Shown: positions 1 to 40,958 of the stretch, piece after piece | Numbering within the stretch: position 1 is the first letter of the stretch | Layout of the letters: every line of letters begins with the position of its first letter | Origin: a virus | Taxonomy: Duplodnaviria; Heunggongvirae; Uroviricota; Caudoviricetes | Strand: one strand, 5' to 3' | IMG/VR virus record: IMGVR_UViG_3300033068_001916 | DNA length: 46,875 bases | Made by a program: the position numbers and the translations under genes | Notes under the pieces: generated by a model | The model's database searches: none | Seen by the model: the letters and a program-made list of their open reading frames with translations, nothing else | Told to the model about the DNA's origin: nothing

Positions 1-347
1 AATGGAATTCTATTTTTTCTCAATTCCACCATGAATCTAGAAACTACATCTTTAGCAATCGCTTTAGGTTTTGGATCGGCAGCTGGTTTATCTCTTCTTA
101 TAGGACTAGGTCTTTGAGGTGATTTCCCAGGGGAAGTTCCAGGTTTAATTGTAGGTGCTGGTTTTGAGGGAGCTTCTTGTCCTGAAGCTTTAGGTTTTGG
201 ATCGGCAGCTGGTTTATCTCTTCTTATAGGACTAGGTCTTTGAGGTGATTTCCCAGGGGAAGTTCCAGGTTTAATTGTAGGTGCTGGTTTACTTGGCGCC
301 TCCTGTGGACTACCCGCTAAAAACTCATCAATTTTTGTATAAATCAT
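1..347 (-). CDS. Pro/Lys-rich repeat protein, runs off the left window edge
   Basis: Not in the track. ATG at 347 (minus), open to the edge: MIYTKIDEFLAGSPQEAPSKPAPTIKPGTSPGKSPQRPSPIRRDKPAADPKPKA, module repeated, then IAKDVVSRFMVELRKNRIP. Confidence 0.8.
   Translation of the reverse strand, partial: MIYTKIDEFLAGSPQEAPSKPAPTIKPGTSPGKSPQRPSPIRRDKPAADPKPKASGQEAPSKPAPTIKPGTSPGKSPQRPSPIRRDKPAADPKPKAIAKDVVSRFMVELRKNRIP
61..290. repeat. Direct repeat, 104 bp identical, period 126 bp
   Basis: 61-164 is identical to 187-290 and encodes a 42-aa tandem module. Confidence 0.95.
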
Positions 348-369
348 AACTATTATTATTTTTATATGT

Positions 370-383
370 GGATATATATATCC
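370..383. promoter_or_regulatory. Palindromic GGATATATATATCC, putative bidirectional phage (late-type) promoter motif
   Basis: Perfect palindrome between divergent genes (347 minus, 405 plus). GGATATATA recurs at 25592, 29625-29633 (minus) and 45700. Confidence 0.55.
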
Positions 384-404
384 AAATCTAATATTATAAT
401 TATT

Positions 405-2060
405 ATGAAGAATCAAAGTTTTCGTACCTTTTTCGATATCGAACCTCTAATGGAAAATGTTCAGGATGCAAAATCCTATCTAATCAAGAGATATGCAGAA
501 AAAAACAACATTAAGGCATCAGATATAGATGATGAGACAAAAAAAGATATAACAAATAACCCTAAATTTCTAGAAATCAAGGATCTTATGGATAAAAATA
601 AGATGCCAGGTAATACCTATCCGTTTCTTATGTTTCGTATTGATCAGAATGCAACAATCGATCAGATTGAGGAGATTATCGAATTATTGAAAGATAATAA
701 AAATAATCTAAATTCTCTTCCGATGTCTATTATGGAATATGCAAAAATAGACAGAAAAAAGAAAAACGATAAAAATGAGGAGGGCGATGATTATAGACCA
801 GGATGGGAGATGCTTAGAGATGATCTATCAAATATCGAAAGAAAAAGAAAACTTAAGAATTTTATTGATAGATTAACACCTAGAATGAAAGAATATGTTA
901 CTAAAAAAGCAACAACAAAGCAGCTAGAAAAATTAGAGGAAATATCTAATCAATTAAAGCTTATGCCTAAGAGTGACGAAGGTAGAGAAGCATGGGATGC
1001 TTTTTTCTATCCGGATCTTGGTGTTGTTAATGAATTCGGTAAGGTTAAAGGTAGAATGGGATCTTATGACGATATAAGAACATATCCAGATTACAAGGAA
1101 CCAGCAAAAGCATTGGATGGTATAATATTTGACGCTGAGCAGTTTATTGAAAAATGGGGCGAGGACGAAGACGCTGTTATTGCTAAAATAAAAGCTCTTG
1201 GACCTCAAGCTGGTATTATTTATGCTAGAGATGGATTCTTAATTATGTCTGCAAGAACACCAGATGCACAGAGATTAGTTTGTTCTGAAACTGGATGGTG
1301 TATTAGAACCGATTCGACTTTCTGGAGCTATAGCTCTGGTAGGGTACAGATAAACGTTATTAATAACAATATCCCAACATCTGAAAGAAATAGCTTAGTT
1401 GGTATAACAGTAAATAAAAACGGAACAGTTCATACCGATGCAGATAGACCAAATGGAAGAATAAATGCACCAGGGGGAGGAAATTATACAGGTAAACCTG
1501 CTTCAGATCTACTTAGAAGAATCGGCGTACCTCAGGCTGGTATAGAAGCATTTGAGAGAGAATTCCCAGTAGAGGCTGATATAAAAATTGCTCTTGAGTT
1601 ATTCTTTAAAGATTCAAGTAAATTAACACCGCTTGATATAATAACATCTCTTCTAAAATTCAATAGAGGATTTTTAAGCGGAAGTATGTCAGAGGATCAT
1701 TGGGAAAAAATATCCGCTCTTGTATCACAGATAATCTCTGAATTGAAGGGATTAACATCTAAGGATTTCCTTAGAGCATTCCTTGGAGGCGAAAGAGCCG
1801 ATAGTATGGGAGGAATATTTAGTGAAGCAGCATGGAATATATTCGACAAACTTGTTAAGAATGATTATACTCCGGAGCAAATGAAAAAGCTATATTCTGA
1901 ATCATTATTGGGGTATGAAGCTATGGAAGAAATTATGCAGGATATAGAAGCTGGAGAATATCCACATATGAAGGAAAGCGATATTAAGGGCATGAAAAAT
2001 GCATTGGAATATAAAGATAAGTCATTGGCTAAATTTAAAAAATTAATCAAGGATGAATAA
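405..2060 (+). CDS. Hypothetical protein, possible virion-internal protein
   Basis: Track ORF 366..2060. ATG 405 preferred because it lies downstream of the GGATATATA motif. Contains a GWCI motif; no family recognised. Confidence 0.75.
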   Translation: MKNQSFRTFFDIEPLMENVQDAKSYLIKRYAEKNNIKASDIDDETKKDITNNPKFLEIKDLMDKNKMPGNTYPFLMFRIDQNATIDQIEEIIELLKDNKNNLNSLPMSIMEYAKIDRKKKNDKNEEGDDYRPGWEMLRDDLSNIERKRKLKNFIDRLTPRMKEYVTKKATTKQLEKLEEISNQLKLMPKSDEGREAWDAFFYPDLGVVNEFGKVKGRMGSYDDIRTYPDYKEPAKALDGIIFDAEQFIEKWGEDEDAVIAKIKALGPQAGIIYARDGFLIMSARTPDAQRLVCSETGWCIRTDSTFWSYSSGRVQINVINNNIPTSERNSLVGITVNKNGTVHTDADRPNGRINAPGGGNYTGKPASDLLRRIGVPQAGIEAFEREFPVEADIKIALELFFKDSSKLTPLDIITSLLKFNRGFLSGSMSEDHWEKISALVSQIISELKGLTSKDFLRAFLGGERADSMGGIFSEAAWNIFDKLVKNDYTPEQMKKLYSESLLGYEAMEEIMQDIEAGEYPHMKESDIKGMKNALEYKDKSLAKFKKLIKDE

Positions 2061-2102
2061 TAGATATTCTAAAATTACTGAACCAATAAAACACAAATAA
2101 AA

Positions 2103-3371
2103 ATGGAAAAAACACAAAAGGTAATAAGATTCGAGGAATATATTCTTGAGGCTAGAAAGAGATGGGATAATCTGAATGATAAAACCAGCGATATCTATAG
2201 AGCATTCGAAGAAAGCAACGAGGGTAAGGACCTAGCTTCTATTGGTGTTTATGTAGAGGAAAGAACTCCAAGTGTTCTTATATTCAAAAGAAGAGGTGGT
2301 CCAATGGCAACTGTTGAGGCATGGAAAGATGGAGATGGTAAATATTGCTATGAGTACACATCAAGTAAAAAGGGTGTTGAAAGATACAATCTTTCCAGAT
2401 TTGATACACCAACTGCATGTCTAAGAGGATTTCTTTTAAGAATCATAAGAAACAATATACCAGCCGCTATTATACCTAAAAAAGACATACCTAGTCTTAA
2501 CTTTAATGAGCTTGTTCCGATCGGGTCTCAAATGGCATTTCCTGAAATACTTTCTAGAATGAAAGGTGCGATAGGAGGAGAGGAATTAACAGACCTTGAT
2601 GCTAATGCAGTTCAGAAATTACCTATCATACAGAATCTTGAAGATATGGGAATGGTTGGTAGAAGAATTGATAACAGAGAAACTATTATTAAAAAAGTTG
2701 ATATCATTTCTCCTAAGTATAAATTCTATTCAAGAGCAGCATTTAGAGTTGGTGAGATATACGGTAAAACAATTGCCGGTATATTAAAAGTTAAATATGA
2801 CGATCTTAAAAAATCAAGTAAAGGTAAGGGACTATTATTTGATGATGGACAGGAAATATGGAGAGTTAATAACTCTAACCGTCTTCCTCTTAATAGTATT
2901 AATTATAGAACTGGTGACAATTCTGTTAAATGTAACATCCAAGACGAGGAAATATTTGGTTCTGTTTTTGTTTCTATATTCATTAGAACATTCAAGAGAG
3001 CTAAGGGAAGATATGAAAATGAAAAGTTAATAAATCCTAATTCTTATATATTAAGAAACGAGGGTCAGGAAACAATTGACGTTGCAACTGAGCTCAATGG
3101 ACTTTTATCTGATTACTTTACTGAGGCTGCAGGAAGATTGGAACCTACAATATTCATTAACCCTGAGGATGATGACAACAGACCTATAATGGATAATGCT
3201 AATGCATTATTAATTAAATATCTTATGAAACATGGATCGTCTGAGATAAGAGAGAGAATAATGAAAAATTCGGATCTTGATGAGCTTGTTTCGATTACTA
3301 CTAAACACGAGGATATTGACGATGCAACTAGAAAATTAATTAGAGTTTCTAGAGCTCTTAGATTCATTTAA
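2103..3371 (+). CDS. Hypothetical protein with capsid-targeting-like N-terminus
   Basis: 422 aa ORF; N-terminus KVIRFEEYILE; C-terminus RKLIRVSRALRFI. Confidence 0.75.
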   Translation: MEKTQKVIRFEEYILEARKRWDNLNDKTSDIYRAFEESNEGKDLASIGVYVEERTPSVLIFKRRGGPMATVEAWKDGDGKYCYEYTSSKKGVERYNLSRFDTPTACLRGFLLRIIRNNIPAAIIPKKDIPSLNFNELVPIGSQMAFPEILSRMKGAIGGEELTDLDANAVQKLPIIQNLEDMGMVGRRIDNRETIIKKVDIISPKYKFYSRAAFRVGEIYGKTIAGILKVKYDDLKKSSKGKGLLFDDGQEIWRVNNSNRLPLNSINYRTGDNSVKCNIQDEEIFGSVFVSIFIRTFKRAKGRYENEKLINPNSYILRNEGQETIDVATELNGLLSDYFTEAAGRLEPTIFINPEDDDNRPIMDNANALLIKYLMKHGSSEIRERIMKNSDLDELVSITTKHEDIDDATRKLIRVSRALRFI

Positions 3372-3616
3372 TGGAAGAGGTCAGCGAAAGAAAAAAACAG
3401 GATGTCTGTGAAGGATGCGGTAAACAGATAGCTGATCCTGAAAAAGAATGTCCAACATGCGGGACTTTTCCGCATAAGGCATATCACGAAAGAGCAGCAG
3501 CTAAAACACTAAATATTTCTAAGTGGGTTCAAAGCTCACCTGCCATGCAGCCAAATCAGAAATTAAGTGAAAATTTACCACCTCTGAGAAATATAATATC
3601 ATTTGATGATTTTTAA
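3371..3616 (+). CDS. Small zinc-ribbon protein
   Basis: CxxC...CxxC (CEGC, CPTC); start overlaps upstream stop. Confidence 0.65.
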   Translation: MEEVSERKKQDVCEGCGKQIADPEKECPTCGTFPHKAYHERAAAKTLNISKWVQSSPAMQPNQKLSENLPPLRNIISFDDF

Positions 3617-3647
3617 AAAAATTCCGGCACTGTCCGGAATTTTTTTT
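3615..3647. terminator. Intrinsic terminator, possibly bidirectional
   Basis: aaaaaaattccgg-cactgt-ccggaatttttttt. Confidence 0.8.
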
Positions 3648-3667
3648 GATATGTGAGTAGAATATTT

Positions 3668-4438
3668 ATGGAAAGAAAAAAAATAGGAATTGTAATATTA
3701 GCTACCAATTCGTACTTCGTACTTGGTATTAGATTTATAAAGAAATTCATTCATCACTATAAAGGTGATTGCGAGATTAAGTTCTACTTTTTCTCAGATA
3801 CGGATCCTTCCGATTATCTACAGGATTGTATAAATTTTGAGTATCACGAATCCAAACATAATAGCTGGGTTGATGCTACCAATGATAAATTTAGAAATAT
3901 AATCAATCTATCCGAATGCAGTAGTGATTATTTATATTATTTTGATGCTGATACCAGCGTATCCAAGGATTTTACTGAGGAATGGTTTATCGGCGATCTA
4001 GTAGGTGGTGAACATTATGGAAATAAAACGTGGCTAGCTAATGGAGTTGGATTTGATAGATTTGAATTGTCGAAGGCTTATGTTCCTTTGGATAGCACTT
4101 TACCGTATACCTATCATTATGGTGCATTCTTTGGCGGATTGAAGGGCAAGGTTGTTGATTTTTGTAAAACTCTTAGAGAATGGCAGATAGAGGATAAAAA
4201 AATACCATATGAACCTGGTGTTAATGATGAGAGCTACATAAATGCTTATTTTCATTTTAATCCTCCAACATATACAGTTTCATCTGAGAATTTCCAATTT
4301 GATATAAGCCATAAGGGAGGAATAGGTGAAACAAGAAACACAGATCTTGATATATCTAGGCTTAAATCGGAGATGCTTGGTTATAGAGACTTCACTTTCG
4401 ATATAATGGACAATGTAATAATACCGATCAACCGATGA
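3668..4438 (+). CDS. Glycosyltransferase family 6 (ABO-like)
   Basis: KIGIVILATNSY, YFDAD (DxD), YHYGAFFGG and NDESYINAYF match GT6 motifs. Confidence 0.8.
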   Translation: MERKKIGIVILATNSYFVLGIRFIKKFIHHYKGDCEIKFYFFSDTDPSDYLQDCINFEYHESKHNSWVDATNDKFRNIINLSECSSDYLYYFDADTSVSKDFTEEWFIGDLVGGEHYGNKTWLANGVGFDRFELSKAYVPLDSTLPYTYHYGAFFGGLKGKVVDFCKTLREWQIEDKKIPYEPGVNDESYINAYFHFNPPTYTVSSENFQFDISHKGGIGETRNTDLDISRLKSEMLGYRDFTFDIMDNVIIPINR

Positions 4439-7923: not shown

Positions 7924-7961
7924 AAACTTTATGTGGTATTTCACATATACCTTGTTATAAA
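7924..7961 (+). repeat. Half attC-like site H0 (right arm only)
   Basis: 37/38 nt identical to the right arm of H5 (9768-9805); no left arm upstream. Confidence 0.8.
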
Positions 7962-7972
7962 CTGTAAAAATT

Positions 7973-8176
7973 ATGAAATTAATAAAAAATATAGTAAAAA
8001 CTGATTTTATAACTTCTACAAATATACTTTTACTAAAAGGTCAGGAAGTTAGAACTATTTACACTCCTGATTCTGTTCACGGGGATAGATTTATAGATAT
8101 TTGGAGGTGCATTGATGGTTCGTATTGTGGTGGCTTAAATCCAAGATTAGAAGCTGATTATTTAGAAGAAATTTAA
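7973..8176 (+). CDS. Cassette ORF C1, hypothetical
   Basis: 67 aa, between GTTA 7954 and TAAC 8208. Confidence 0.65.
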   Translation: MKLIKNIVKTDFITSTNILLLKGQEVRTIYTPDSVHGDRFIDIWRCIDGSYCGGLNPRLEADYLEEI

Positions 8177-8207
8177 TATTAAACGCATTTTTGGATAAAC
8201 TTTTACA

Positions 8208-8336
8208 TAACGTTCGAGTGCTTTACGTCCGTTGTGGCTAAATAAGCACTAAACTTTCCTGTTATCACGAAATTAAACTGATGCAAAACAATAATTAAAT
8301 CAATCACAATGTAGCAATAGCGTGTAATTGCTGTTA
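8208..8336 (+). repeat. attC-like site H1 (129 bp, chimeric)
   Basis: Left 85 nt are 81/85 identical to H12, but the right arm differs and does not pair with the left arm. Confidence 0.75.
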
Positions 8337-8348
8337 TAAGTAGCTTTT

Positions 8349-8630
8349 ATGATTAGAAAATATAAAATAATAGCAGAAGTAGAAATAGATATTCAAAAGA
8401 TTTTTAAAGACAATATAAAAGATTATATAGAAGATGATAGTATTTCAGATGAAGCGTATGCAACTCAATCTATCTATGGCGTAATACGAGATGGATGTAC
8501 TGAACAAGTAAAGGATAGATGTGAGTGGATGTTTAAAGACTGTTACGACCAGATAAAGCACCATAAGGAAGTAGATGTTTTAATTGGTAAAGAAATACTA
8601 AAAAGTCTAAAGATAAACGTTATCGAGTAA
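8349..8630 (+). CDS. Cassette ORF C2, hypothetical
   Basis: Flanked by gttataagtaGct and agTtacttataac. Confidence 0.7.
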   Translation: MIRKYKIIAEVEIDIQKIFKDNIKDYIEDDSISDEAYATQSIYGVIRDGCTEQVKDRCEWMFKDCYDQIKHHKEVDVLIGKEILKSLKINVIE

Positions 8631-8639
8631 AGTTACTTA

Positions 8640-8767
8640 TAACGTTTCCACAGCTTTGCGAGGTTGCGACCTAAAAACTTAAAATTTACAAACACAAAAT
8701 ACACTTAAAATGAGCAAAAATATTTCAAATACAGACCAAACCAAGCAATCTTGCAAAATTGGTGTTA
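8640..8767 (+). repeat. attC-like site H2 (128 bp)
   Basis: tttgcgaggttgc pairs with gcaatcttgcaaa; contains ATG 8710. Confidence 0.8.
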
Positions 8768-8964
8768 GTGGCAGTCTTTCTAAACGTGAAAAGCTATCAC
8801 TTTTATCAGCCGATATTTTTGCAAGGAGAAAAGATTATAATTTTCATTTAACAAGTGAATTGTGTGCCGTTATTTGGCTTTTGGGTAAAGGAACTAAAAA
8901 CGAATATGATTGTAAGGAAATTATAAATTCTGTTTATTCACAGTTCTTTCAAGATTGCCACTAA
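8710..8964 (+). CDS. Cassette ORF C3 with hairpin-encoded leader
   Basis: Starts inside H2, reads through GTT as Val (KIG-VSGS), stops at the TAA of TAAC. Confidence 0.7.
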   Translation: MSKNISNTDQTKQSCKIGVSGSLSKREKLSLLSADIFARRKDYNFHLTSELCAVIWLLGKGTKNEYDCKEIINSVYSQFFQDCH

Positions 8965-9259
8965 CGGTTGCAAATAAAAATATGTAAAATTAACGGATAT
9001 GGAAGATAAACTAAAAAAACATTTGAATTTTTGTAAAAAGTATCCAGAAACAATAGTAGGATATGAACAAGGTATAAATGTTTCATATTATTTGATGGAA
9101 GGGAACACACCACAAGTGGATTATTTCAAGGTTGGTGATTTAGTTAAAATGTATAATGAAAATCCAAATGTTTTTTCTGAATATAAAAACTTAAAAGATG
9201 ATTGGAACGATTTAATAACCACTGAAGGTAGTTAATTTTATTGTTTTTATTTGTTGTTA
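8962..9259 (+). repeat. attC-like site H3 (298 bp) with an ORF in its loop
   Basis: Left arm caaataaaaatatgtaaaattaac pairs with right arm gttaattttattgtttttatttg. Confidence 0.75.
8999..9235 (+). CDS. ORF inside the loop of H3, hypothetical
   Basis: 78 aa; the stop TAA is supplied by the right arm. Confidence 0.65.
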   Translation: MEDKLKKHLNFCKKYPETIVGYEQGINVSYYLMEGNTPQVDYFKVGDLVKMYNENPNVFSEYKNLKDDWNDLITTEGS

Positions 9260-9284
9260 TGTTCTCGTTTTAATGGAACATAAC
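9256..9284 (+). other. Empty 29-bp inter-site segment C4
   Basis: gttatgttc-tcgttttaatg-gaacataac. Confidence 0.8.
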
Positions 9285-9407
9285 GTTGAAGCATAACTGT
9301 AGTTTAGGATAAGTAAGCCTAATCTATCGAAGTTAAAAACCAAGTTCACAAGTACAAAAACAATTATAAATCAAGCCTGATACCTAAATTACTGTTATGC
9401 AGTGTTA
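9281..9407 (+). repeat. attC-like site H4 (127 bp)
   Basis: gcataactgtagtttagg pairs with cctaaattactgttatgc. Confidence 0.8.
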
Positions 9408-9434
9408 GGGTTAGGTTTTTTAAACATTTACATT

Positions 9435-9719
9435 ATGAAAAGCGAGGAATATAGAATTGTATTAAACAATGTGTTTGAAACAAAAGAAATTGGAAAAGAA
9501 TATTTTGACAGAATTTTATTGGATTTTGCAATGGCATACCATAAAGAGCAATTAGGTATACTTAATGAAAACACTTTTAATAAAGAAAAGTTTGGCGAAT
9601 TAGCTATTATTTTTTTAAATGATTTGCAAAATAAAGAGATTAATTGTAAACATAATTTAGATATAAACGGAGAATGTTTAAATAATTTCTACCAATGGCT
9701 GTGTAAAAATTACAGCTAA
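9435..9719 (+). CDS. Cassette ORF C5, hypothetical
   Basis: ATG 9435; stops at the TAA of TAAC; segment ends only partly complementary. Confidence 0.65.
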   Translation: MKSEEYRIVLNNVFETKEIGKEYFDRILLDFAMAYHKEQLGILNENTFNKEKFGELAIIFLNDLQNKEINCKHNLDINGECLNNFYQWLCKNYS

Positions 9720-9801
9720 CGACTGGGTATATGTGAAGTACCCAACGACAGACTTAATAATTAGTAGAAACTTTATGGGGTATTTCACATATACCTTGTT
9801 A
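9717..9801 (+). repeat. attC-like site H5 (85 bp)
   Basis: ggtatatgtgaagtaccc pairs with gggtatttcacatatacc. Confidence 0.85.
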
Positions 9802-9816
9802 TAAAACGTTTATTTT

Positions 9817-10104
9817 ATGGTAGAATTTAAAAATCCTTTGGTTAGGGTAAGATGTTTGGAATGTAGAGAAGAACATTTTATTGAAATGAAACATATTGGA
9901 ACTGATAAAGAACAAAGAAGTATTGGTTTTGAATATGAACACATATATAGAGGTGAATTAAAATGTTCTCATTGTGGGGAAGATATGAGATTATTAACAA
10001 CGATATTTGAATTTCCAAAAGTATTTTTAAATTATCACGAAACGAATAATGAATCTTGTTTAGTGATGGATGATATTACAGATGATTCGTTAAATGTTTT
10101 ATAA
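9817..10104 (+). CDS. Cassette ORF C6, zinc-ribbon protein
   Basis: CLEC...CSHC; flanks gttataaaacGttta and taaaTgttttataac. Confidence 0.7.
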   Translation: MVEFKNPLVRVRCLECREEHFIEMKHIGTDKEQRSIGFEYEHIYRGELKCSHCGEDMRLLTTIFEFPKVFLNYHETNNESCLVMDDITDDSLNVL

Positions 10105-10361
10105 CGTTTTGCAAATAGGCTTAGTAAAATTAAACTTAATGAAATATAATTATGAAAGGCAAATTACGAGAAATTCAAGCATACAGTAGTAATTCAAGTG
10201 ATGAATTGGATTATAAAAATAAATACTGGTTTCATCAATGGATTGGAAAAACAACTGCTTTAATTGAAGATGAGCATGGGAAATTGATAAAAGCTAAACA
10301 CACAGAATTTCGTTTTAAGACGGATGCTGATGTTTAATTTTATTGAGCCTATTTGCTGTTA
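10102..10361 (+). repeat. attC-like site H6 (260 bp) with an ORF in its loop
   Basis: gcaaataggcttagtaaaattaaac pairs with gtttaattttattgagcctatttgc (two G:T). Confidence 0.8.
10152..10337 (+). CDS. ORF inside the loop of H6, hypothetical
   Basis: 61 aa; the stop is supplied by the right arm. Confidence 0.6.
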   Translation: MKGKLREIQAYSSNSSDELDYKNKYWFHQWIGKTTALIEDEHGKLIKAKHTEFRFKTDADV

Positions 10362-10386
10362 TGGCATCGTTTTAATGTACCATAAC
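10358..10386 (+). other. Empty 29-bp inter-site segment C7
   Basis: gttatggca-tcgttttaatg-taccataac. Confidence 0.8.
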
Positions 10387-10497
10387 GGTTTGCAGATAAA
10401 AGCAGTTTTAAACTAAAATTAAATAATATGGACGAAAGTAAAATTATGGAAGATAACTCAAATAGAAGTGATGAAAAATTGCTTTTATCTGCTGTTA
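10383..10497 (+). repeat. attC-like site H7 (115 bp)
   Basis: gcagataaaagcagtttt pairs with aaaattgcttttatctgc; contains ATG 10428. Confidence 0.85.
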
Positions 10498-10682
10498 TGC
10501 GTAGTGCTTCTGAAATAGAAGAACGACTACGATGTGCGTTGGCTGGATTTGAACACTCAAAAGAATGTGGTGATATTGAAACAGCAAAAGAATATCAGAA
10601 AGACGCTGGTGTTCTATTTTGGGTGTTGGGTCGTAGTGGTAGTTATGAATATAAGGATGGTAAAATTACGTTGTGTGATTAG
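10428..10682 (+). CDS. Cassette ORF C8 with hairpin-encoded leader
   Basis: Reads through GTT as Val (LSA-VMRS). Confidence 0.7.
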   Translation: MDESKIMEDNSNRSDEKLLLSAVMRSASEIEERLRCALAGFEHSKECGDIETAKEYQKDAGVLFWVLGRSGSYEYKDGKITLCD

Positions 10683-10691
10683 CATTACGCA

Positions 10692-10820
10692 TAACGTTTT
10701 GCAGCTTCATTTCAGTTGCGTACCTAAGCACAAAGAAAACAAATAATCACTTAATAAAATTTAAAAAAATGAACAATTCAGATACAAACCAAGCGAAGCA
10801 ATTGAATGAAACTGCTGTTA
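10692..10820 (+). repeat. attC-like site H8 (129 bp)
   Basis: gcagcttcatttcagttgc pairs with gcaattgaatgaaactgc; contains ATG 10769. Confidence 0.85.
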
Positions 10821-11071
10821 ACAGTAGTATTTTTTATAACGCTTTTATAGGTAAAAAAGATTCAAACGGAATTGAATTAAAAAACGGAGATAATATAATT
10901 ATTGAGGTTTGTAAGCCTGATGGTGCTAATAGAAATGGAGTTTACCACAAAGGACAAATAATATATGAAAATTGTTCTTTCTCAATTAAAATGAAAAGAA
11001 GTGAAGAAACATTTGATACAAATCCTTTATCAAATTATGCTTCATATTGTAAAATAAATTTAAACAATTAA
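10769..11071 (+). CDS. Cassette C9 ORF a with hairpin-encoded leader
   Basis: Reads through GTT as Val (ETA-VNSS). Confidence 0.7.
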   Translation: MNNSDTNQAKQLNETAVNSSIFYNAFIGKKDSNGIELKNGDNIIIEVCKPDGANRNGVYHKGQIIYENCSFSIKMKRSEETFDTNPLSNYASYCKINLNN

Positions 11072-11075
11072 TAAA

Positions 11076-11261
11076 ATGGACTTAAGAAAACAATTCAAAG
11101 TTACAGACGATGTAGATAATAAAAGATTCGTCTTTGATTCAGTAGACAATAATTCTTGTTCTTATACGGTTGCGTATTACGAATGTGATTCTGACGAGTC
11201 TAATGCTTGGATTTGTGTTTGGAAAGCGAAAAAAGGAGAAATTGAACGAGCTTCTGTTTAA
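11076..11261 (+). CDS. Cassette C9 ORF b, hypothetical
   Basis: Second ORF within one segment (gttaacagtaGtatt ... aataTtactgttaac). Confidence 0.6.
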   Translation: MDLRKQFKVTDDVDNKRFVFDSVDNNSCSYTVAYYECDSDESNAWICVWKAKKGEIERASV

Positions 11262-11270
11262 TATTACTGT

Positions 11271-11318
11271 TAACGTCTGATGATAAACAATCGTTTTAAT
11301 GTTGTTTATCATTTGTTA
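11271..11318 (+). repeat. attC-like site H9 (48 bp, minimal)
   Basis: atgataaacaa-tcgttttaatg-ttgtttatcat. Confidence 0.8.
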
Positions 11319-11385
11319 TGTGTAGTTATCATTCTGGAAACATCTTATAAAAATACAGATATAATAAACAAAAATAAATAAATAT

Positions 11386-11907
11386 ATGAAACTAATAAAC
11401 GAAACTTTCTTAATTGATACCTTTGATAAAGTATTAAAATCAGGTGATTTACAAAAATTGGTAAATGTTAAAAAATCAGAATCTAATGAATTAGAAGAAC
11501 ATTTGATTTCTATTTCAATTACTTCTGATCAACATAAATTGATTAGATCCCTGAATATAGATGAAAAAACGGAAGAGTATCTATTATCTGAGCTCAAAGA
11601 TTATTTTTTCAAAAAAATACTAGATTTTGTTTATTCCAACTCGACAATATTAGATAAGAACGAGTTGTATCAGAATATAGATAATCAAATAGTGATAGGT
11701 AGTTCTGGTGCAATTATGGATATTCCTGAAAATGTATCTACGATTTTAGATTATAATAAAAGTTTCAGTGACAAAACATTAGTAGTCACAGATAGTGTTG
11801 ATTTAATTTTAGATTACAATTCGATAAAAATACAAACAATTGGTATGGGAGGATTTGCTCCTAAGATGATTTTGAAATTTAGTTTTTGTTTAGCTGACAC
11901 AGAGTGA
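11386..11907 (+). CDS. Cassette ORF C10, hypothetical
   Basis: 173 aa; flanks pair at 16/18 plus two G:T. Confidence 0.7.
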   Translation: MKLINETFLIDTFDKVLKSGDLQKLVNVKKSESNELEEHLISISITSDQHKLIRSLNIDEKTEEYLLSELKDYFFKKILDFVYSNSTILDKNELYQNIDNQIVIGSSGAIMDIPENVSTILDYNKSFSDKTLVVTDSVDLILDYNSIKIQTIGMGGFAPKMILKFSFCLADTE

Positions 11908-11917
11908 TAATTACACA

Positions 11918-12046
11918 TAACGATACTCAGATATATTTAGGTTTTCATTTTTAATATATACTAAAAATAATTTAACAATATGAAAAATAATAAACATGTA
12001 GAAAGTTTCGGAAAATTCAATGAAAACTTGAATATATCTGATGTTA
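11918..12046 (+). repeat. attC-like site H10 (129 bp)
   Basis: tcagatatatttaggttttcatt pairs with aatgaaaacttgaatatatctga; loop contains ATATATACTA and ATG 11980. Confidence 0.85.
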
Positions 12047-12228
12047 GTGAGAGTAAAAAATCAAATCTAAAAATAAATAAATTTCTTGAGGAATTAACAA
12101 TAATATCTCAAAAGTATAATATTTATTTAGATACAACTGATGATATGTTTATGACTGATGATAGTGGTGATATTGGTAGTATTAAATATGACGACAATCT
12201 AAATAAATATATTTATCAGAAATATTGA
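11980..12228 (+). CDS. Cassette ORF C11 with capsid-targeting-like leader encoded by H10
   Basis: MKNNKHVESFGKFNENLNISD-VSES. Confidence 0.7.
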   Translation: MKNNKHVESFGKFNENLNISDVSESKKSNLKINKFLEELTIISQKYNIYLDTTDDMFMTDDSGDIGSIKYDDNLNKYIYQKY

Positions 12229-12242
12229 TTTTTAATTATCAC

Positions 12243-12360
12243 TAACGTTCGATGGCTTGTAGCAGAACGTATAATTAAAAACAAACATTACAGACACAAA
12301 AGAATTATTAACCAACGATGGCAAAGTAGCCTAAAGTAGTTTTGCTACAAACCATTGTTA
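12243..12360 (+). repeat. attC-like site H11 (118 bp)
   Basis: atggcttgtagcagaac pairs with gttttgctacaaaccat. Confidence 0.85.
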
Positions 12361-12374
12361 TAAACAGTTATTTT

Positions 12375-12680
12375 ATGATTATAGTAAACTATTACCGAGA
12401 AGAAGATTGCAACCCTGAAACAGATGGTTATCATTTGCATTTAGCTGGTGTAATAAACGATACTTTAGATTTGCAATATGATATACAATTAATTACAGAT
12501 TGTATTGATAACGATATTAATTTTGAACCTAAAAATGGTATTTTATACGAATTACAATTGACAAGAGCAACTATTCAAGCAGACCCAGTTGATGAGCCAG
12601 CTTTTGCAATTAGAGAAATTATTGAATTAAAAAGATGTAAACATACTGGCGAATTTTCTCCTGAGTTAGTTCGGCTATAA
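12375..12680 (+). CDS. Cassette ORF C12, hypothetical
   Basis: ATG 12375 (track ORF starts at TTG 12342). Confidence 0.65.
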   Translation: MIIVNYYREEDCNPETDGYHLHLAGVINDTLDLQYDIQLITDCIDNDINFEPKNGILYELQLTRATIQADPVDEPAFAIREIIELKRCKHTGEFSPELVRL

Positions 12681-12687
12681 TTGTTTA

Positions 12688-12816
12688 TAACGTTCGAGTG
12701 CTTTACGTCCGTTGTGGTTAAATAAGCACTAACCTTTCCTGTTATCACGAAACAAAACTGATGCAAAACAAATTTAATATTAAACCTAAACCCACAATGG
12801 CGTAAAACACTTGTTA
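12688..12816 (+). repeat. attC-like site H12 (129 bp)
   Basis: agtgctttacgtccgttgtgg pairs with ccacaatggcgtaaaacact. Confidence 0.85.
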
Positions 12817-12841
12817 TGCCTAGTGCTTAAAATCAGAAATT

Positions 12842-13096
12842 ATGCAAACAAAAAAAGGATGGCATAAATCAGGACTTGATTTAACAGAATATTTAGATGA
12901 ACCTTGTGAAATTAACGAGGAATTATTTAATTACATACTAGAATGTACAGCTCCACAATATTTAGATTACGGATTAGGACAAACTGGAGAAGCTGAAAAA
13001 CACGAAGATGGTGTTGGATATTATATGACAGTTTCTTTCGTAAATAACAAGCACTTTTATTTAGGAATTTTACCAGAGTTCGTTCAGTCGCATTAG
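12842..13096 (+). CDS. Cassette ORF C13, hypothetical
   Basis: Flanks gttatgcctaGtgc and gcaTtaggcataac. Confidence 0.7.
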   Translation: MQTKKGWHKSGLDLTEYLDEPCEINEELFNYILECTAPQYLDYGLGQTGEAEKHEDGVGYYMTVSFVNNKHFYLGILPEFVQSH

Positions 13097-13099
13097 GCA

Positions 13100-13228
13100 T
13101 AACGGACGGCGTGTATGAGAAGTGGCGTGCCCACAAACACTAATATTAACTAAAAAACACTAACAAACCCAATAAATACAGTATTTAACAAGTGTGCCCA
13201 AAGTAGCCATTTTTTATACACGATGTTA
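13100..13228 (+). repeat. attC-like site H13 (129 bp)
   Basis: cgtgtatgagaagtggc pairs with gccattttttatacacg. Confidence 0.85.
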
Positions 13229-13258
13229 GTAGCTGTGTTTATTAAAGAATTTTAAAAT

Positions 13259-13483
13259 ATGGGAGATTTATTAGAATTAATGCAAGAATTTGAAAAAAGA
13301 AACAACACTTCAATATCCTTAGATTTATGTAGTGATGGGTCAGGAACTTTAAAAGAGTTTTGGGATGGTGATGAAATAAAATCGTTTGAAAATTCGTCTG
13401 AATTACGCTCGTTTTTAGCGAACGGAAAATTGAAAATGAAAGATGGTCGTTCTGTTAAACCTATTAAGATAGTGGCTCAATAA
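13259..13483 (+). CDS. Cassette ORF C14, hypothetical
   Basis: Flanks gttagtagctGtgtt and aacaTagctactaac. Confidence 0.7.
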   Translation: MGDLLELMQEFEKRNNTSISLDLCSDGSGTLKEFWDGDEIKSFENSSELRSFLANGKLKMKDGRSVKPIKIVAQ

Positions 13484-13492
13484 CATAGCTAC

Positions 13493-13618
13493 TAACGTTT
13501 TGCTACTACAAGCAGTAGCGTGCTGAAAAGCCTAAATTATCGGAGTTTGCCCGAACAAAGCAAGTGCAAAAAAATAATAACCAAAGCCAAATGAAGCTAT
13601 TGATTGTAGTAGCTGTTA
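13493..13618 (+). repeat. attC-like site H14 (126 bp)
   Basis: gctactacaagcagtagc pairs with gctattgattgtagtagc. Confidence 0.85.
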
Positions 13619-13645
13619 TACAACGGTTTTTAAACATCATTAATT

Positions 13646-13915
13646 ATGAAAACTAATAAACAATATAGATTTAAAGACAATCCAAAAGAAAAAGAATTTC
13701 ACGATAAATTCAAAGAAATGTTTGAAAGTAACGGAGTGACAGATAAAACTCTTTCATCAATAGTTTTTGGATGGAAAGATGATAGACAAAATGTTCCTGC
13801 AAAATATCTAACAGAAAAAGAAAAAGATATTTGCTTAAATATAATACAATGGTTAGGTTCTCCTGTTGGAAGCGGATTTCTTCGTGACTGCGGATTTTCT
13901 GAAACTGTTGTATAA
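13646..13915 (+). CDS. Cassette ORF C15 (recombinase-proximal), hypothetical
   Basis: Flanks gttatacaacGgttt and aaacTgttgtataac; stops at the TAA of TAAC. Confidence 0.7.
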   Translation: MKTNKQYRFKDNPKEKEFHDKFKEMFESNGVTDKTLSSIVFGWKDDRQNVPAKYLTEKEKDICLNIIQWLGSPVGSGFLRDCGFSETVV

Positions 13916-13968
13916 CTATATTATATATGTAATAAAATGTAACCCGTTAATTTTCAACAAGTTATATA
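13913..13968 (+). other. Candidate attI-like insertion site
   Basis: TAAC not followed by the usual hairpin; contains aaaatgtaac-cc-gttaatttt and a GTTA 8 nt before the recombinase ATG. Confidence 0.45.
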
Positions 13969-14772
13969 ATGAAAAATCAAAAAATTATAAAGATCTGTAA
14001 AGAAAAGTTTATATATTTAAACTATTCACCTAGAACAAGAGATAATTATATATCTCACATAAAACATTTTTTAGAAAGCTTAGAGGATAAACAGATCGTA
14101 CATTGTAATTCTTCTGATTTTCAATCATATTTGGATAATTACGACTTTACATCAGTCTCTCAACAAAACCAAATTATTAACTCTATTAGATTCTTATACA
14201 AAGAAGTATTGAATAAAAAGTATGATAAAGTTTCCTTTAGGAGGCCTAGATCCGAAAAGAAATTACCTAAAGTAATAGATGGTAATTTTATTAAAAAACA
14301 ATTAGGTAGTATTAAAAATCTAAAACATAAAGCGATACTCACCTTAACATATTCAGTCGGATTAAGAGTCTCCGAAATAGTAAATCTAAAAATTATAGAT
14401 ATTGATTCTAAAAGAATGTTAATTCATATAAAAAATGCTAAAGGTCGAAAAGATAGAATTGTACCTTTATCTCAAATTGTTTTAGAACTATTAAGAGAAT
14501 ATTTCAAAGAATATAAACCAAAAGAATTCTTATTCAATGGTCAAAACTCCCTACAATACTCAGTAGGGAGCTGTCAAAAGATTTACAAAAAGTATATCGA
14601 TAATAAATCATCTATACACACTTTAAGGCATTCCTCATTCACAAATTTATTAGAATCGGGGACAGATTTAAGAATAATACAGAAGATTGCGGGACATTCG
14701 AGTTCAAAAACAACAGAAATTTATACTCACGTTTCTAACAACCTTTTATCCAGGGTTAAATTACCAATATAA
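13969..14772 (+). CDS. Tyrosine recombinase/integrase, compact Xer-like, putative cassette integrase
   Basis: Intact catalytic set: GLRVSE, AKGRKDR, HTLRH, AGH, EIY; N-terminal SAM-like region YSPRTRDNY; no IntI insertion. Confidence 0.95.
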   Translation: MKNQKIIKICKEKFIYLNYSPRTRDNYISHIKHFLESLEDKQIVHCNSSDFQSYLDNYDFTSVSQQNQIINSIRFLYKEVLNKKYDKVSFRRPRSEKKLPKVIDGNFIKKQLGSIKNLKHKAILTLTYSVGLRVSEIVNLKIIDIDSKRMLIHIKNAKGRKDRIVPLSQIVLELLREYFKEYKPKEFLFNGQNSLQYSVGSCQKIYKKYIDNKSSIHTLRHSSFTNLLESGTDLRIIQKIAGHSSSKTTEIYTHVSNNLLSRVKLPI

Positions 14773-17534: not shown

Positions 17535-18002
17535 ATGAATAAGGATCTGGCAGAAGCTGAGGAGAGAGCTCTAAATTACATAAGATCAACTAAGGAATAT
17601 TCAGAAATGAATTTCCAGGATAATAATAGTAAAATATGGGTGGCACACAATTCTTTGATTGAAGCTGCCAAAATATATGTTATTGACAATTATAAATTGA
17701 TTGACGATTATTCTGGACTCGATTTAATATTAAGAAGCGGAGCAACCGGTGATAGATTCTATTTTGGACCAAAAAGATCGAGGGAGGTTTCAAGATCTGG
17801 CATGTTGACAAACATATTAAAGGATCTAGATTCTAGAACTATAACGATAGAGACATTTGATGATGCAATCTATGATTGGTCGGACGGAGATTTTTCTGTT
17901 GTCTTTAATGGGGTTTCCTATAATTGGATAGACAGCGATTCAGTTATAAACATAGCATCATACATAGAAAAAAAATTAGAAGAAAATGAAATACAATATT
18001 GA
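17535..18002 (+). CDS. Hypothetical protein
   Basis: 155 aa ORF. Confidence 0.7.
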   Translation: MNKDLAEAEERALNYIRSTKEYSEMNFQDNNSKIWVAHNSLIEAAKIYVIDNYKLIDDYSGLDLILRSGATGDRFYFGPKRSREVSRSGMLTNILKDLDSRTITIETFDDAIYDWSDGDFSVVFNGVSYNWIDSDSVINIASYIEKKLEENEIQY

Positions 18003-19104
18003 AACAATAAATGAATATGTAGCAAAGGGATTGATCGATAAATGCGAGCATAAGGAGCTTCCAATAGCTATTTATAAATATTCACGTAATTGTCAATTCG
18101 AATGGAATTGGGACGATGTAACGAAAAATATGAGAGGAACTGTTCTTGATGATGATGGTAATCTGATTGCCCGTACATTTCCTAAGTTCTTCAATATTGA
18201 TGAATCTAATGTACCTAATCTTAATTTTGAGGTTTTTGAAAAGCTTGACGGATCTCTTGGCATATTATTTAATTATGAAGGGGAATGGCATCTGGCAACA
18301 CAGGGATCATTCTATTCAGATGTTGCTATCTACGCCAAAGAAATATTGAAAAGAAATGAAACGTATAAGGAAGTTTTTTCTGAGAAATTTACTTTTCTTT
18401 TTGAGATCATCTACCCAAAGAATAGAATAGTTTGTTCCTATGGAGATGATGAGAAATTAGTTATGCTGGCTGCTTTTAATACAAATACAGGCAGAGAAGT
18501 TCCTTATCATGAATTAATTGATGTTGCAAATAGAACTGGGTTTGAATGCGCTAAAAGATATGATGGAATAAAAGATCTCAAGAAGATAAAATCCCTAATA
18601 GGAGATAATCAGGAAGGCTTTGTTATAAGATTTTCCGACGGAACAAGGATTAAAGCCAAGGGTGAGGAGTATGTTAGACTCCATGGGGTTCTAACATCAT
18701 TCTCCAATCTTGATATCTGGAGATGTTTAAAGGAGGGAACTGATTATAGATCTCTGATGGTTGATATACCCGATGAATATGACGCCTGGGTTACCAATGT
18801 TGAGGAGGATCTTCAATCCAATTTCAATTTTATAGATGCAACAATAAATGCTGAATATAAATTGATAGCAAAGAAGATCAAGAGTCAAATTCCAACAGAG
18901 GAGGAAAGATTAGACAGAAACTCTCCTGTACTTAAGGCATACAACAAGGAATTTTTTGAACTTGTAGAAGGCCATAGATTAGCTGGATATCTATTAGATC
19001 GTCATAGAAATAAAGACTATTCAGGATCGATATGGAATCAAATAAGACCTGAATATGAAAAACCATTTTGGACAGATTACTCAATGAAAAGAAACGAATT
19101 ATGA
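17986..19104 (+). CDS. RNA ligase, T4 Rnl1-like
   Basis: MRGTVLD...ARTFPKFFN, motif I EKLDGSL, FLFEII, QEGFVI, RIKAKGEEY. Confidence 0.85.
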   Translation: MKYNIETINEYVAKGLIDKCEHKELPIAIYKYSRNCQFEWNWDDVTKNMRGTVLDDDGNLIARTFPKFFNIDESNVPNLNFEVFEKLDGSLGILFNYEGEWHLATQGSFYSDVAIYAKEILKRNETYKEVFSEKFTFLFEIIYPKNRIVCSYGDDEKLVMLAAFNTNTGREVPYHELIDVANRTGFECAKRYDGIKDLKKIKSLIGDNQEGFVIRFSDGTRIKAKGEEYVRLHGVLTSFSNLDIWRCLKEGTDYRSLMVDIPDEYDAWVTNVEEDLQSNFNFIDATINAEYKLIAKKIKSQIPTEEERLDRNSPVLKAYNKEFFELVEGHRLAGYLLDRHRNKDYSGSIWNQIRPEYEKPFWTDYSMKRNEL

Positions 19105-39640: not shown

Positions 39641-39856
39641 ATGAAGGCAAAGATAACAAAAACTATGGCATTAGCCATTGAAGTAGGAATAGCAGAGCTA
39701 GAAAATAGCGGAATTTGGGAAGATGAATTGACGGGGAAAGAGAGAAAGAAAGTTTATAAAGGTATTGAGGAGCTTGAAGCTCTTCTTATGAAAATTGAAA
39801 CAAAGAAAAAAGATAAAAAAGATGGAAAGAAAACTAGCGACAATCAGGAAGATTAG
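39641..39856 (+). CDS. Hypothetical protein
   Basis: 71 aa ORF. Confidence 0.55.
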   Translation: MKAKITKTMALAIEVGIAELENSGIWEDELTGKERKKVYKGIEELEALLMKIETKKKDKKDGKKTSDNQED

Positions 39857-40958
39857 CGATCTCCAGCCTATCGAGGGAGCGGATCTTATAGAATTGGCAA
39901 TCGTCGATGGATGGAAGGTAGTAGTTGGTAAGGAGGTTGGACACAAGATAGGTGACTTTGTCATCTATTGTGAAGTGGATTCATTCCTTCCAATCAGGGA
40001 AGAATTTGAATTCCTTAGAAAGAGCTCATATAGAAAAATGGTTGATCAGGAGGGATTCCGTCTTAGAACAATAAAACTTAGAGGACAAGTTTCTCAGGGT
40101 CTTATCATTCCACTATCGATTCTTGAGGGTGAGGAAGATGACGAAAAACTTGGATATCTACAAACACCGGAAGGTCCAGTTTATCAATTAGGACCATATG
40201 ATGGTGCTCTAGTTATAGAGGAAGGTGCTGACGTTACAGTAATGCTTAATATCGTTAAATGGGATCCGCCAATTCCTGCTGAATTAGCAGGTGTTGCTAA
40301 GGGGAATTTCCCAAGTTTTATACCTAAGACCGACGAGGAGAGAATCCAAAATCTTGCAAAGAATTTTGAGAAGATGAAGGAACAAAAATATTACGTGACA
40401 GAGAAGCTGGATGGATCATCATCAACATTCTACGTTTATAATGGTGAGTTTGGAGTTTGCTCTAGGAATCTAGATTTGTGCCGTCCCGAGCCATTCGTGG
40501 AAGGTATGGTTATGTGTGAGGATGGGATAGAAAGACCTAAAAAGGAAAATACATTCTGGAAGGTTGCTAAAGAACTTAATATCGAGGAGAATATGCTTGA
40601 TATGGGAGGAAACTTTGCAATTCAAGGTGAAATTATAGGCGAGGGTATACAAGGTAATCCATATAGAATTAAAGGACAAACTCTTAGAGTTTATAATGTT
40701 TTTGATATTGATACACAAGAATACCTGGAACTTGAGGATTTTAAAATGAAAGTCAGAGCTCTTTGTTTGGAGACCGTTCCTATTATTGATGAAAACTTTG
40801 AACTCCCAGAAACAATAGATGAAATTCTAAAGTTCGCAGAAGGAAAATCGACACTAAACCAGACAGCGGAGAGAGAAGGCTACGTTATCAGAAGCTTAGA
40901 TAGAAAAACAAGCTTCAAAGCTATATCTAATAATTTTCTATTAAAGGAGAATGAGTAA
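39822..40958 (+). CDS. RNA ligase, Rnl2/DRB0094-like with N-terminal OB module
   Basis: RKLATIRKI...IEGADLIE, TEKLDGSS, QGEIIG, REGYV, FKAISNNFL. Confidence 0.85.
   Translation: MERKLATIRKISDLQPIEGADLIELAIVDGWKVVVGKEVGHKIGDFVIYCEVDSFLPIREEFEFLRKSSYRKMVDQEGFRLRTIKLRGQVSQGLIIPLSILEGEEDDEKLGYLQTPEGPVYQLGPYDGALVIEEGADVTVMLNIVKWDPPIPAELAGVAKGNFPSFIPKTDEERIQNLAKNFEKMKEQKYYVTEKLDGSSSTFYVYNGEFGVCSRNLDLCRPEPFVEGMVMCEDGIERPKKENTFWKVAKELNIEENMLDMGGNFAIQGEIIGEGIQGNPYRIKGQTLRVYNVFDIDTQEYLELEDFKMKVRALCLETVPIIDENFELPETIDEILKFAEGKSTLNQTAEREGYVIRSLDRKTSFKAISNNFLLKENE

Follow-up and report, generated by a model that had tools for sequence, protein, structure and literature searches.

Two small phage genes sit inside the loop of a recombination-type DNA hairpin, each followed by a tiny capped hairpin at the position that a gene would normally occupy. 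This arrangement is a second way of packing a swappable gene cassette, and it recurs in well over a hundred uncultivated Bacteroidota phages (at least 120 IMG/VR contigs and 10 genome contigs, the latter mostly Bacteroidota MAGs). The two genes lie in the window, that is, the whole 46,875-nucleotide stretch of IMG/VR record IMGVR_UViG_3300033068_001916, within an array of 15 cassettes made of alternating "A" hairpins (attC-like) and "B" hairpins (GTTAT...ATAAC) that ends at a conserved attI-like junction beside a gene for a 267-aa Xer-like recombinase. We found no paper describing this design, and the action of the recombinase on it is inferred rather than shown.

Coordinates of the H3 and H6 units and of the array in which they sit (window numbering)
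Coordinates	Strand	Feature	Basis
8966..9284		H3 unit
8960..8965	+	ACTAAC box ending the preceding cassette; left boundary of the H3 unit	Sequence; array map
8966..8969	+	5' spacer GGTT of the H3 A hairpin	Array map; the ..AAC G nnn spacer recurs in 92 of 101 related units
8970..8994	+	H3 A-hairpin left arm; 12-bp socket at 8970-8981, distal stem begins at 8982	Pairs with 9231-9254 in MFE and centroid folds; socket boundary from alignment with loci L131/L132
8999..9235	+	H3 cargo ORF, 78 aa, entirely inside the A loop; stop at 9233-9235 in the right arm	16 homologues at 62-93% identity; in-frame indel relative to L131
9231..9254	+	H3 A-hairpin right arm; followed by linker T at 9255	Folds; array map
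9256..9284	+	Capped B hairpin of H3: 9-bp stem GTTATGTTC/GAACATAAC with cap TCGTTTTAATG at 9265-9275	Exact match; folds; the stem covaries in 120 loci
10106..10386		H6 unit
10100..10105	+	TATAAC box ending the preceding cassette; left boundary of the H6 unit	Sequence; array map; metagenome contigs match from 10102/10103 onward
10106..10110	+	5' spacer GTTTT of the H6 A hairpin	Array map
10111..10135	+	H6 A-hairpin left arm, with G:T wobble at stem position 14	Inverted-repeat search; folds; array map
10152..10337	+	H6 cargo ORF, 61 aa, inside the A loop; stop TAA at 10335-10337 in the right arm	13 homologues at 66-98% identity
10332..10356	+	H6 A-hairpin right arm; followed by linker T at 10357	Inverted-repeat search; folds
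10358..10386	+	Capped B hairpin of H6: stem GTTATGGCA/TACCATAAC with one C:A mismatch, cap at 10367-10377	Exact match; folds
11275..11314	+		Array map; the same element precedes the H3-family gene in L131/L132
7954..13916	+	Whole array of 15 A+B cassettes in which the two units sit	Map and stem pairings
13917..13968	+	attI-like junction (..ATAAC TATATTATATATG..) between the last cassette and the recombinase gene	The same AAC-TAT-n-ATATA junction lies upstream of recombinase homologues (39-86% identity) in 12 other loci
13969..14772	+	267-aa Xer/IntI-like tyrosine recombinase without the IntI-specific insertion	Pfam PF00589 + PF13495; below NCBIfam cut-offs for XerA, IntI, XerC and XerD; alignments to 4a8e, 2a3v and 1a0p

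To determine whether the two units are real, we searched the window for the 29-mer, folded each unit as single-stranded DNA, and searched for homologues of the enclosed ORFs. The 29-mer, GTTATGnnnTCGTTTTAATGnnnCATAAC, matches exactly twice, and no match was found in 100 shuffles (0 expected). Each copy follows a 24-25-nt inverted repeat that encloses a complete ORF, and the arms share the motifs GCAAATA...GTAAAATTA(A)AC and GTT(T)AATTTTATTG...TATTTG; the 25-nt arms of H6 are 92% complementary. Both long-range stems and both 29-nt hairpins appear in the MFE and centroid folds; H6 has z = -3.3, whereas the H3 fold as a whole is not better than shuffles (z = -1.0), although its arms pair. The 29-mers hold no gene, only a 4-codon M-x-S-F reading. 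Both ORFs, in contrast, are real genes, with 16 and 13 homologues at 62-98% identity and similar length, and H3 differs from a homologue by an in-frame 3-nt indel. The homologues came only from a large protein search; tblastn of the H3 and H6 proteins against the 120 motif-bearing loci found none.

The results support the proposal, made in the sequence-only reading, that these units represent a second cargo-loading mode, and they extend it beyond the window. In 101 of 120 IMG/VR occurrences and 9 of 10 genome-contig occurrences, the 29-mer follows a hairpin whose left arm is preceded by ..AAC G nnn. The loops carry one sense-strand ORF of 40-302 aa from 46 unrelated families, comprising 55 unique proteins, and the stop codon lies 11-24 nt before T-GTTAT in about two thirds of them. 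Methyltransferase families occur in both A and B loops. Three points of the proposal require correction. First, the 29-bp segment, which had been described as an empty body, is not meaningless, but is a minimal B hairpin that keeps the conserved features. Second, the motif does not always follow an ORF-containing hairpin: about a third of the units have a standard ~73-nt non-coding loop, and a few show no recognisable arms. (Loops of ~75 nt with GGTTCGAnTCC motifs resemble tRNAs, but ARAGORN finds none there and Rfam has no match.) Third, the same cap also closes empty A hairpins (11279-11313), and the rule is therefore that either loop may be loaded or capped. The cargo of the attI-proximal inside-out unit differs between contigs, which argues against a conserved accessory protein at that position.

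The stems covary, and they do so with a strand bias. The 29-mer stem shows at least 10 fully complementary variants. Across 68 distinct A-arm pairs, positions 2-13 are 71-99% Watson-Crick (85% or more except positions 9 and 12), positions 15-17 are 87-99% Watson-Crick, and position 14 is G:T in 58 of 68. In those arms there are about 146 G:T pairs against about 14 A:C pairs, indicating that the sense strand is the one that folds. B stems in the array pair as 10 Watson-Crick pairs + G:T + 4 Watson-Crick pairs, and, of 196 loaded B stems, 179 have G:T at position 11; by the same criterion, 39 B stems were found on the other strand, against 196 on the array strand. The cap occurs 184 times, all on the array strand and none on the other. 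Capped B stems are 9 bp in 115 of 115 cases, and capped A elements, which have 12-bp stems, have 13 nt between cap and GTT in 28 of 36 cases. As read from the sequence, the cap can pair as bulged T, C-G, G:T, T-A; in this pairing scheme, the 9-bp B socket and the 12-bp A socket place the wobble T of the cap at exactly the 3'-arm register seen in loaded stems (positions 11 and 14).

The H3 gene family exists in both modes. An 88%-identical homologue of the H3 gene occurs elsewhere in the opposite form, capped A plus gene in B. Two loci, L131 and L132, that carry the H3-family gene in this form share only window positions 8982-9242 with the H3 unit, and the breakpoints thus lie at A-stem position 12/13 and B-stem position 9/10, exactly at the 12-bp and 9-bp sockets. 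The H6-family plug occurs at one further locus in a different A socket and at another in the B position behind a capped A.

The units also occur in different surroundings. Identical units have different neighbours, with the break between AAC and G, and the H6 unit occurs at 100% identity with different neighbours in two other metagenomes. In Logan contigs from other studies, window positions 10103-10387 and 10102-10362 match with 0 differences but have different upstream sequence, 10382-10696 occurs as an isolated block, and 8527-9287 matches and then diverges. No recombination event, circle or excision joint was observed in these assembled contigs, in which raw-read junctions cannot be seen; contigs that appear to skip the H3 and H6 loops have similar arms but other contents, and are not excision products.

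All 14 loci carrying a recombinase homologue have it on the same strand as the motif and downstream of it, and the AAC-TAT-n-ATATA junction lies 46-70 nt before the start codon in the window and in 12 other loci. The catalytic residues align (GLRVSE, HTLRHS, GHSS, IYTH). The enzyme is Xer-like but falls below every equivalog cut-off (XerA, 169 against 220; XerD, 141 against 330; XerC, 141 against 335), and it also falls below the cut-offs for TIGR02249 (151 bits against 265) and NF011946 (103 against 435). Residues 178-210 align opposite IntI4 residues 180-260, so that about 48 residues, corresponding to the IntI-specific additional domain, are missing. Some contigs with the motif have no intact recombinase: one has none, and two have fragments only.

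We consider it more likely than not that H3 and H6 are complete mobile cassettes of a phage-borne, integron-like gene-exchange system. According to this hypothesis, every cassette consists of two adjacent hairpins on the sense strand: an A hairpin, with AAC|G + 3-4 nt, a stem with an ATA box, and a G:T wobble at position 14; and a B hairpin, with T|GTTAT...ATAAC and a 15-bp stem with a G:T wobble at position 11. The bases of A and B, the AAC/GTT boxes and the asymmetric spacer together make an attC-like folded site, and an excised circular cassette would fold into a rod with a loop at each end, with cargo able to sit in either loop. In most cassettes the gene is in the B loop; in H3 and H6 it is in the A loop, which corresponds to the 'variable terminal structure' of an attC. 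We infer, but have not shown, that the adjacent Xer-like recombinase cuts the folded sense strand between ATAA and C and moves the units. The system appears to be a major route by which Bacteroidota phages trade small accessory genes, including DNA methyltransferases, and, on this reading, a recombination hairpin can tolerate a 0.2-1.4-kb insert.

As in integrons, an array of co-oriented cassettes lies next to a tyrosine recombinase gene and a docking junction, the sites are imperfect hairpins with invariant AAC...GTT cores, two paired boxes and an unpaired spacer, only one strand is foldable, cassettes appear to be exchanged as blocks at the core, and site arms are homogeneous while cargo is unrelated. 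In contrast to integrons, the enzyme lacks the IntI insertion, the genes point towards the recombinase and may start inside the site, the R stem extends to 15 bp with an invariant G:T at position 11, and the strand is marked by wobble pairs rather than by the extrahelical bases of attC. In H3 and H6, moreover, the whole gene sits in the hairpin loop, and the cassette body is reduced to a capped 29-nt hairpin; we found no paper describing a gene inside an attC. Cassette-like arrays with attC-type sites, including methyltransferase cargo, have been reported in virulent phages, among them a Flavobacteriia (Polaribacter) phage (Qi et al., 2023; PMC9892861). Those arrays were found with IntI-type attC models and tested with IntI1, and no associated Xer-like recombinase, loop-borne genes, cap or A/B alternation are described. 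The 29-mer is absent from cultured phage records (BLAST of the 55-nt arm + 29-mer gave only chance hits), and the region of Polaribacter phage Freya upstream of its integrase shows no clear A/B grammar by eye.

How a gene becomes a cassette has never been seen for integrons, and the fixed socket depths and the G:T mark provide concrete, testable boundaries for how genes are loaded. A more speculative possibility, which we regard as unlikely on present evidence but cannot exclude, is that empty sockets (12 bp in A, 9 bp in B) closed by TCGTTTTAATG are the acceptors into which a gene-bearing plug is exchanged at fixed positions next to the G:T wobble. In this case, either loop of a cassette could be loaded, fully empty cassettes (capped A + capped B, as observed at one locus) would be the blank forms, and the step by which cassettes are made would be exposed.

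The principal alternative, which we consider possible but doubtful, is that the hairpins act in RNA, with each small gene's transcript closed by pairing of its 5' and 3' flanks for stability, RNase processing or translational control, with the 29-nt hairpin serving as a 3' stabiliser or processing signal with a protein-binding loop, and with genes shuffled between phages by ordinary homologous recombination at the repeated sequences, as may happen at PeSL elements of T4-type phages (Arbiol et al., 2010). Folding of the sense strand fits an RNA structure equally well, and block-wise shuffling at conserved boxes could arise from homologous recombination between repeats. Consistent with this alternative, all hairpins, caps and cargo genes lie on the sense strand, G:T pairs (G:U in RNA) are tolerated and even conserved whereas A:C pairs are rare, start and stop codons are embedded in or next to the arms, a conserved ~45-nt leader is shared by unrelated ORFs, and some contigs lack an intact recombinase. 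However, the array ends at a conserved junction directly in front of a co-oriented tyrosine recombinase gene in 13 independent contigs, the invariant AAC/GTT boxes and the two-box site with an asymmetric spacer match tyrosine-recombinase core sites rather than any known RNase signal, B stems span up to 2.3 kb, and no Rfam family matches (for the window array, nothing at E <= 1). PeSLs, like the present hairpins, would punctuate rows of small early genes and mark points of gene exchange between related phages, but are probably short local stem-loops with a promoter, no dedicated recombinase, no two-hairpin unit and no cap, whereas here the pairing spans the ORFs and a recombinase is linked.

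It is very unlikely that H3 and H6 are miniature inverted-repeat elements, that is, small non-autonomous transposons with 25-bp terminal inverted repeats carrying a passenger ORF, moved by a transposase encoded elsewhere, with the 29-mer an unrelated neighbouring motif. Inverted repeats of 24-25 nt do flank a short passenger, and the same unit does occur in several contexts. However, the arms differ between units by compensatory changes rather than being a conserved transposase-binding sequence, the units always sit in phase in the A/B alternation, preceded by AAC G nnn and followed by T GTTAT, no target-site duplications are seen, no transposase is present in the window, and the 29-mer travels with the unit. 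Chance palindromes in AT-rich intergenic DNA, for which only the base composition and the weak z-score of the H3 fold speak, are refuted by the shuffles, by control arms that reach at most 15/20 against up to 19/20 observed, and by covariation across more than 100 contigs.

To determine whether the gene-in-loop arrangement is real, we first searched for the 29-nt pattern described by the sequence-only reading and found that it matches exactly twice, with none found in 100 dinucleotide shuffles. Each of the two 29-mers is a hairpin with a 9-bp stem that begins GTTAT and ends ATAAC, around the loop TCGTTTTAATG. Directly upstream of each 29-mer, separated by a single T, lies the right arm of a long inverted repeat; the two units thus defined are designated H3 and H6. 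In each unit the arms enclose a complete ORF, the TAA stop of which lies inside the right arm. When the units are folded as single-stranded DNA, both give the long-range stem plus the adjacent 29-nt hairpin in the MFE and centroid structures, with z = -3.3 for H6 and, although its arms pair, only z = -1.0 for H3. Both ORFs are genuine genes: the H3 and H6 ORFs have, respectively, 16 and 13 homologues of similar length at 62-98% identity in metagenomes, and the H3 gene differs from a relative by an in-frame 3-nt indel.

Positions of features of the window and of related elements in other contigs
Feature	Position	Description
H3 A-hairpin arms	8970-8994 and 9231-9254	pair with each other
H3 ORF	8999-9235	78 aa
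H3 29-mer	9256-9284	capped B hairpin
H6 A-hairpin arms	10111-10135 and 10332-10356	25 nt, 92% complementary
H6 ORF	10152-10337	61 aa
H6 29-mer	10358-10386	capped B hairpin
Array of 15 units	7954-13916	+ strand; two hairpins per unit
Capped A hairpin	11275-11314	closed by the same 11-nt loop as the 29-mers
ORFs wholly in B (examples)	8349, 9817, 13646	
ORFs starting in the A loop and reading through into B	8710, 10428, 11980	
Tyrosine recombinase gene	13969-14772	267 aa
13-nt stretch after the H3 29-mer	9285-9297	GTTGAAGCATAAC
A hairpins sharing a 5' half	8212-8290 and 12692-12770	~80 nt, GTTCGAGTGCTTTACG...
RNA ligase genes	17986-19104 and 39795-40958	one T4 Rnl1-like; one with a PHA02142 OB-fold plus RNA_ligase domain
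Standard A loops with T-arm-like hairpins	L003:3830-3944, L030:141-255, L070:4847-4960	oriented to the motif strand
Recombinase gene fragments	G001 235146-235305; G002 15101-15430	residues 1-41 and 247-267, or 2-111
B hairpin with a different plug	L137:100-480	GTTAAAA...TTTTAAC
H6-type gene-in-A unit	L136:650-923	87% aa identity
Fully empty cassettes	L087 (oriented) around 3100-3175; L088	about 70 nt in all

The window is a Flavobacterium-type phage contig, for which only short matches to Flavobacterium phages were found, and which contains, outside the array, two RNA ligase genes. Mapping of the array shows 15 units, each made of two hairpins: an A hairpin, which follows ..AAC|G plus 3-4 nt and is about 107-122 nt long in its standard form, and, linked to it by a single T, a B hairpin that starts GTTA(T/G/A) and ends (A/C)TAAC. 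Loaded B stems pair as ten Watson-Crick pairs, a G:T, then four more pairs. The 13-nt stretch that follows the H3 29-mer lies between the end of the 29-mer and the AAC box that actually pairs with GTTATGC at 9394, and looks like a collapsed or remnant unit. Two A hairpins share an ~80-nt 5' half that is ~91% identical to unannotated intergenic stretches of Flavobacterium columnare phages FCL-2 and FCOV. The last unit of the array is followed by ATAAC-TATATTATATATG and, 52 nt later, by the tyrosine recombinase gene. The encoded protein has Pfam PF00589 and PF13495 and an aligned catalytic set, scores below the cut-offs for XerA, XerC, XerD and integron integrase, and lacks the ~48-residue IntI-specific insertion. 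The order ATAAC, spacer, A stem, T, GTTAT has the layout of an attC site (R'', L'', loop, L', R'), and the extended B stem is what the R stem of an excised circular cassette would be. The ORFs of the array are placed in three ways: wholly in B; starting in the A loop and reading through into B; or, in H3 and H6, wholly in the A loop with B reduced to the 29-mer.

To assess how general the arrangement is, we analyzed the occurrence of the 29-mer in other contigs. It hits only 10 contigs among one genome each of 185,579 species, most of them Bacteroidota MAGs and one a Roseivirga isolate, and it hits no cultured phage. The four free stem positions covary, with at least ten fully complementary variants. 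In 101 of 120 occurrences, the 20 nt before T-GTTAT pair with a segment 58-1400 nt upstream, and that segment is preceded by AAC within 12 nt in 92 of 101. Control arms never exceeded 15/20, while observed arms reach 19/20; several low scorers simply have a bulge, and a few have no arms. In the genome contigs, 9 of 10 show the same arrangement. Among 68 distinct arm pairs, positions 2-13 are 71-99% Watson-Crick (85% or more except positions 9 and 12) and positions 15-17 are 87-99%, with many pair types; position 14 is G:T in 58; and G:T pairs outnumber A:C pairs about tenfold. We conclude that the sense strand is the one that folds. Of 196 distinct loaded B stems in the same contigs, 179 have G:T at position 11, and the cap core CGTTTTAATG occurs 184 times on the array strand and never on the other.

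About a third of the units have a standard ~73-nt loop without an ORF. These loops are not tRNAs and match no Rfam family. In three loci (L003, L030 and L070), standard ~75-nt A loops in front of the 29-mer carry one or two T-arm-like GGTTCGAnTCC hairpins, which are not tRNAs by ARAGORN, match no Rfam family, and could be small structured RNAs or tRNA-fragment mimics. The remaining units hold one sense-strand ORF of 40-302 aa, giving 55 unique proteins in 46 families, including DNA-methyltransferase-like enzymes, with the stop codon 11-24 nt before T-GTTAT in about two thirds. Identical arms and a ~45-nt leader flank at least four unrelated ORFs, which recalls the homogeneous attC sites of chromosomal integrons. 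Methyltransferase relatives occur in both A and B loops.

The arrangement is linked to the recombinase gene. All 14 loci with a homologue (27-86% identity) have it downstream of the motif and on the same strand; in the 13 of them with 39-86% identity, it lies behind a conserved AAC-TAT-n-ATATA junction. In 24 of 124 occurrences the 29-mer is the element that abuts this junction. However, some large contigs carry the motif with only fragments of the gene, or none: the jumbo-phage contigs G001 (the 309-kb contig of locus L010) and G002 carry the 29-mer but hold only fragments, and contig G005 has none. In cultured phages, near-identical isolates of Polaribacter phage Freya (Freya_1 to Freya_10; MT732463-MT732472) differ in length from 43,978 to 48,920 bp, and the start of the homologous integrase moves from 50 to 4147, indicating that a variable block sits just upstream of the recombinase gene, although no clear A/B grammar was seen there by eye.

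Units at least 90% identical occur with up to four different upstream and downstream neighbours, and the sequence diverges just outside AAC|G and after ATAAC. In Logan contigs of four unrelated metagenomes, which are assembled contigs and so show alternative arrangements, not events, window 10103-10387 (the H6 unit) and 10102-10362 occur with 0 differences but with different upstream sequence, 10382-10696 occurs as an isolated block, and 8527-9287 matches and then diverges three bases after the H3 29-mer.

The depth at which the cap is attached is fixed in B stems and largely fixed in A elements. Capped B stems are always 9 bp, as shown by 115 distinct contexts, including GTTAG and GTTGT variants not imposed by the search pattern. 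Capped A elements have 13 nt between cap and GTT in 28 of 36 cases, that is, 12 bp plus the linker. The cap can pair as bulged T, C-G, G:T, T-A, which places the wobble T at 3'-arm position 11 in B and 14 in A, corresponding exactly to the registers of the invariant wobble in loaded stems; the difference of 3 between capped stem lengths equals the difference between wobble positions. We infer, from sequence, that the cap is a minimal closure that keeps what is recognised.

One gene family occurs in both forms. Two loci, L131 (a 27-kb ENA contig) and L132 (JGI), carry an H3-family gene at 88% amino-acid identity that is preceded by AAC-G-TCC, the 12-bp capped A hairpin and T-GTTATATTA, and is followed by TCATATAAC-G. 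This is the opposite form: capped A plus gene in B. The alignment shares only window 8982-9242 with these loci, corresponding to the distal stem plus the ORF. The breakpoints fall after A-stem position 12 in the window and after B-stem position 9 in L131; these are the same depths at which caps are attached. In other loci, an H6-family gene sits in a different A socket with a different short B closure (L137, 77%), sits behind a capped A in the B position (L125, 72%), or occurs as a plain gene without hairpins (L122 and L126; likewise L127 and L128 for H3).

We conclude that the sequence-only reading, which proposed ORFs in hairpin loops followed by an empty 29-bp body as a second cargo-loading mode within the same array, holds with three corrections: the 29-mer is a functional-looking minimal hairpin, not an empty body; it also follows ORF-less hairpins; and the cap serves both hairpin types. 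According to the most likely mechanism, two-hairpin cassettes would undergo integron-like exchange by the adjacent Xer-like recombinase acting on the folded sense strand; the action of the recombinase is inferred. An RNA-level role, with shuffling by homologous recombination, remains a serious rival. We found no paper describing a gene inside an attC-type hairpin or this cap.

The usual cap is not the only closure. In L137, a B hairpin is closed by a different short plug, GTTTGC-TTTTC-GCAAAC. In locus L136, an H6-type gene-in-A unit is followed by GTTATAAGTAAGCG rather than by a capped B; the contig ends there, so units with both loops loaded may exist. Loci L087 and L088 contain fully empty cassettes, in which a capped A hairpin is directly followed by a capped B hairpin.
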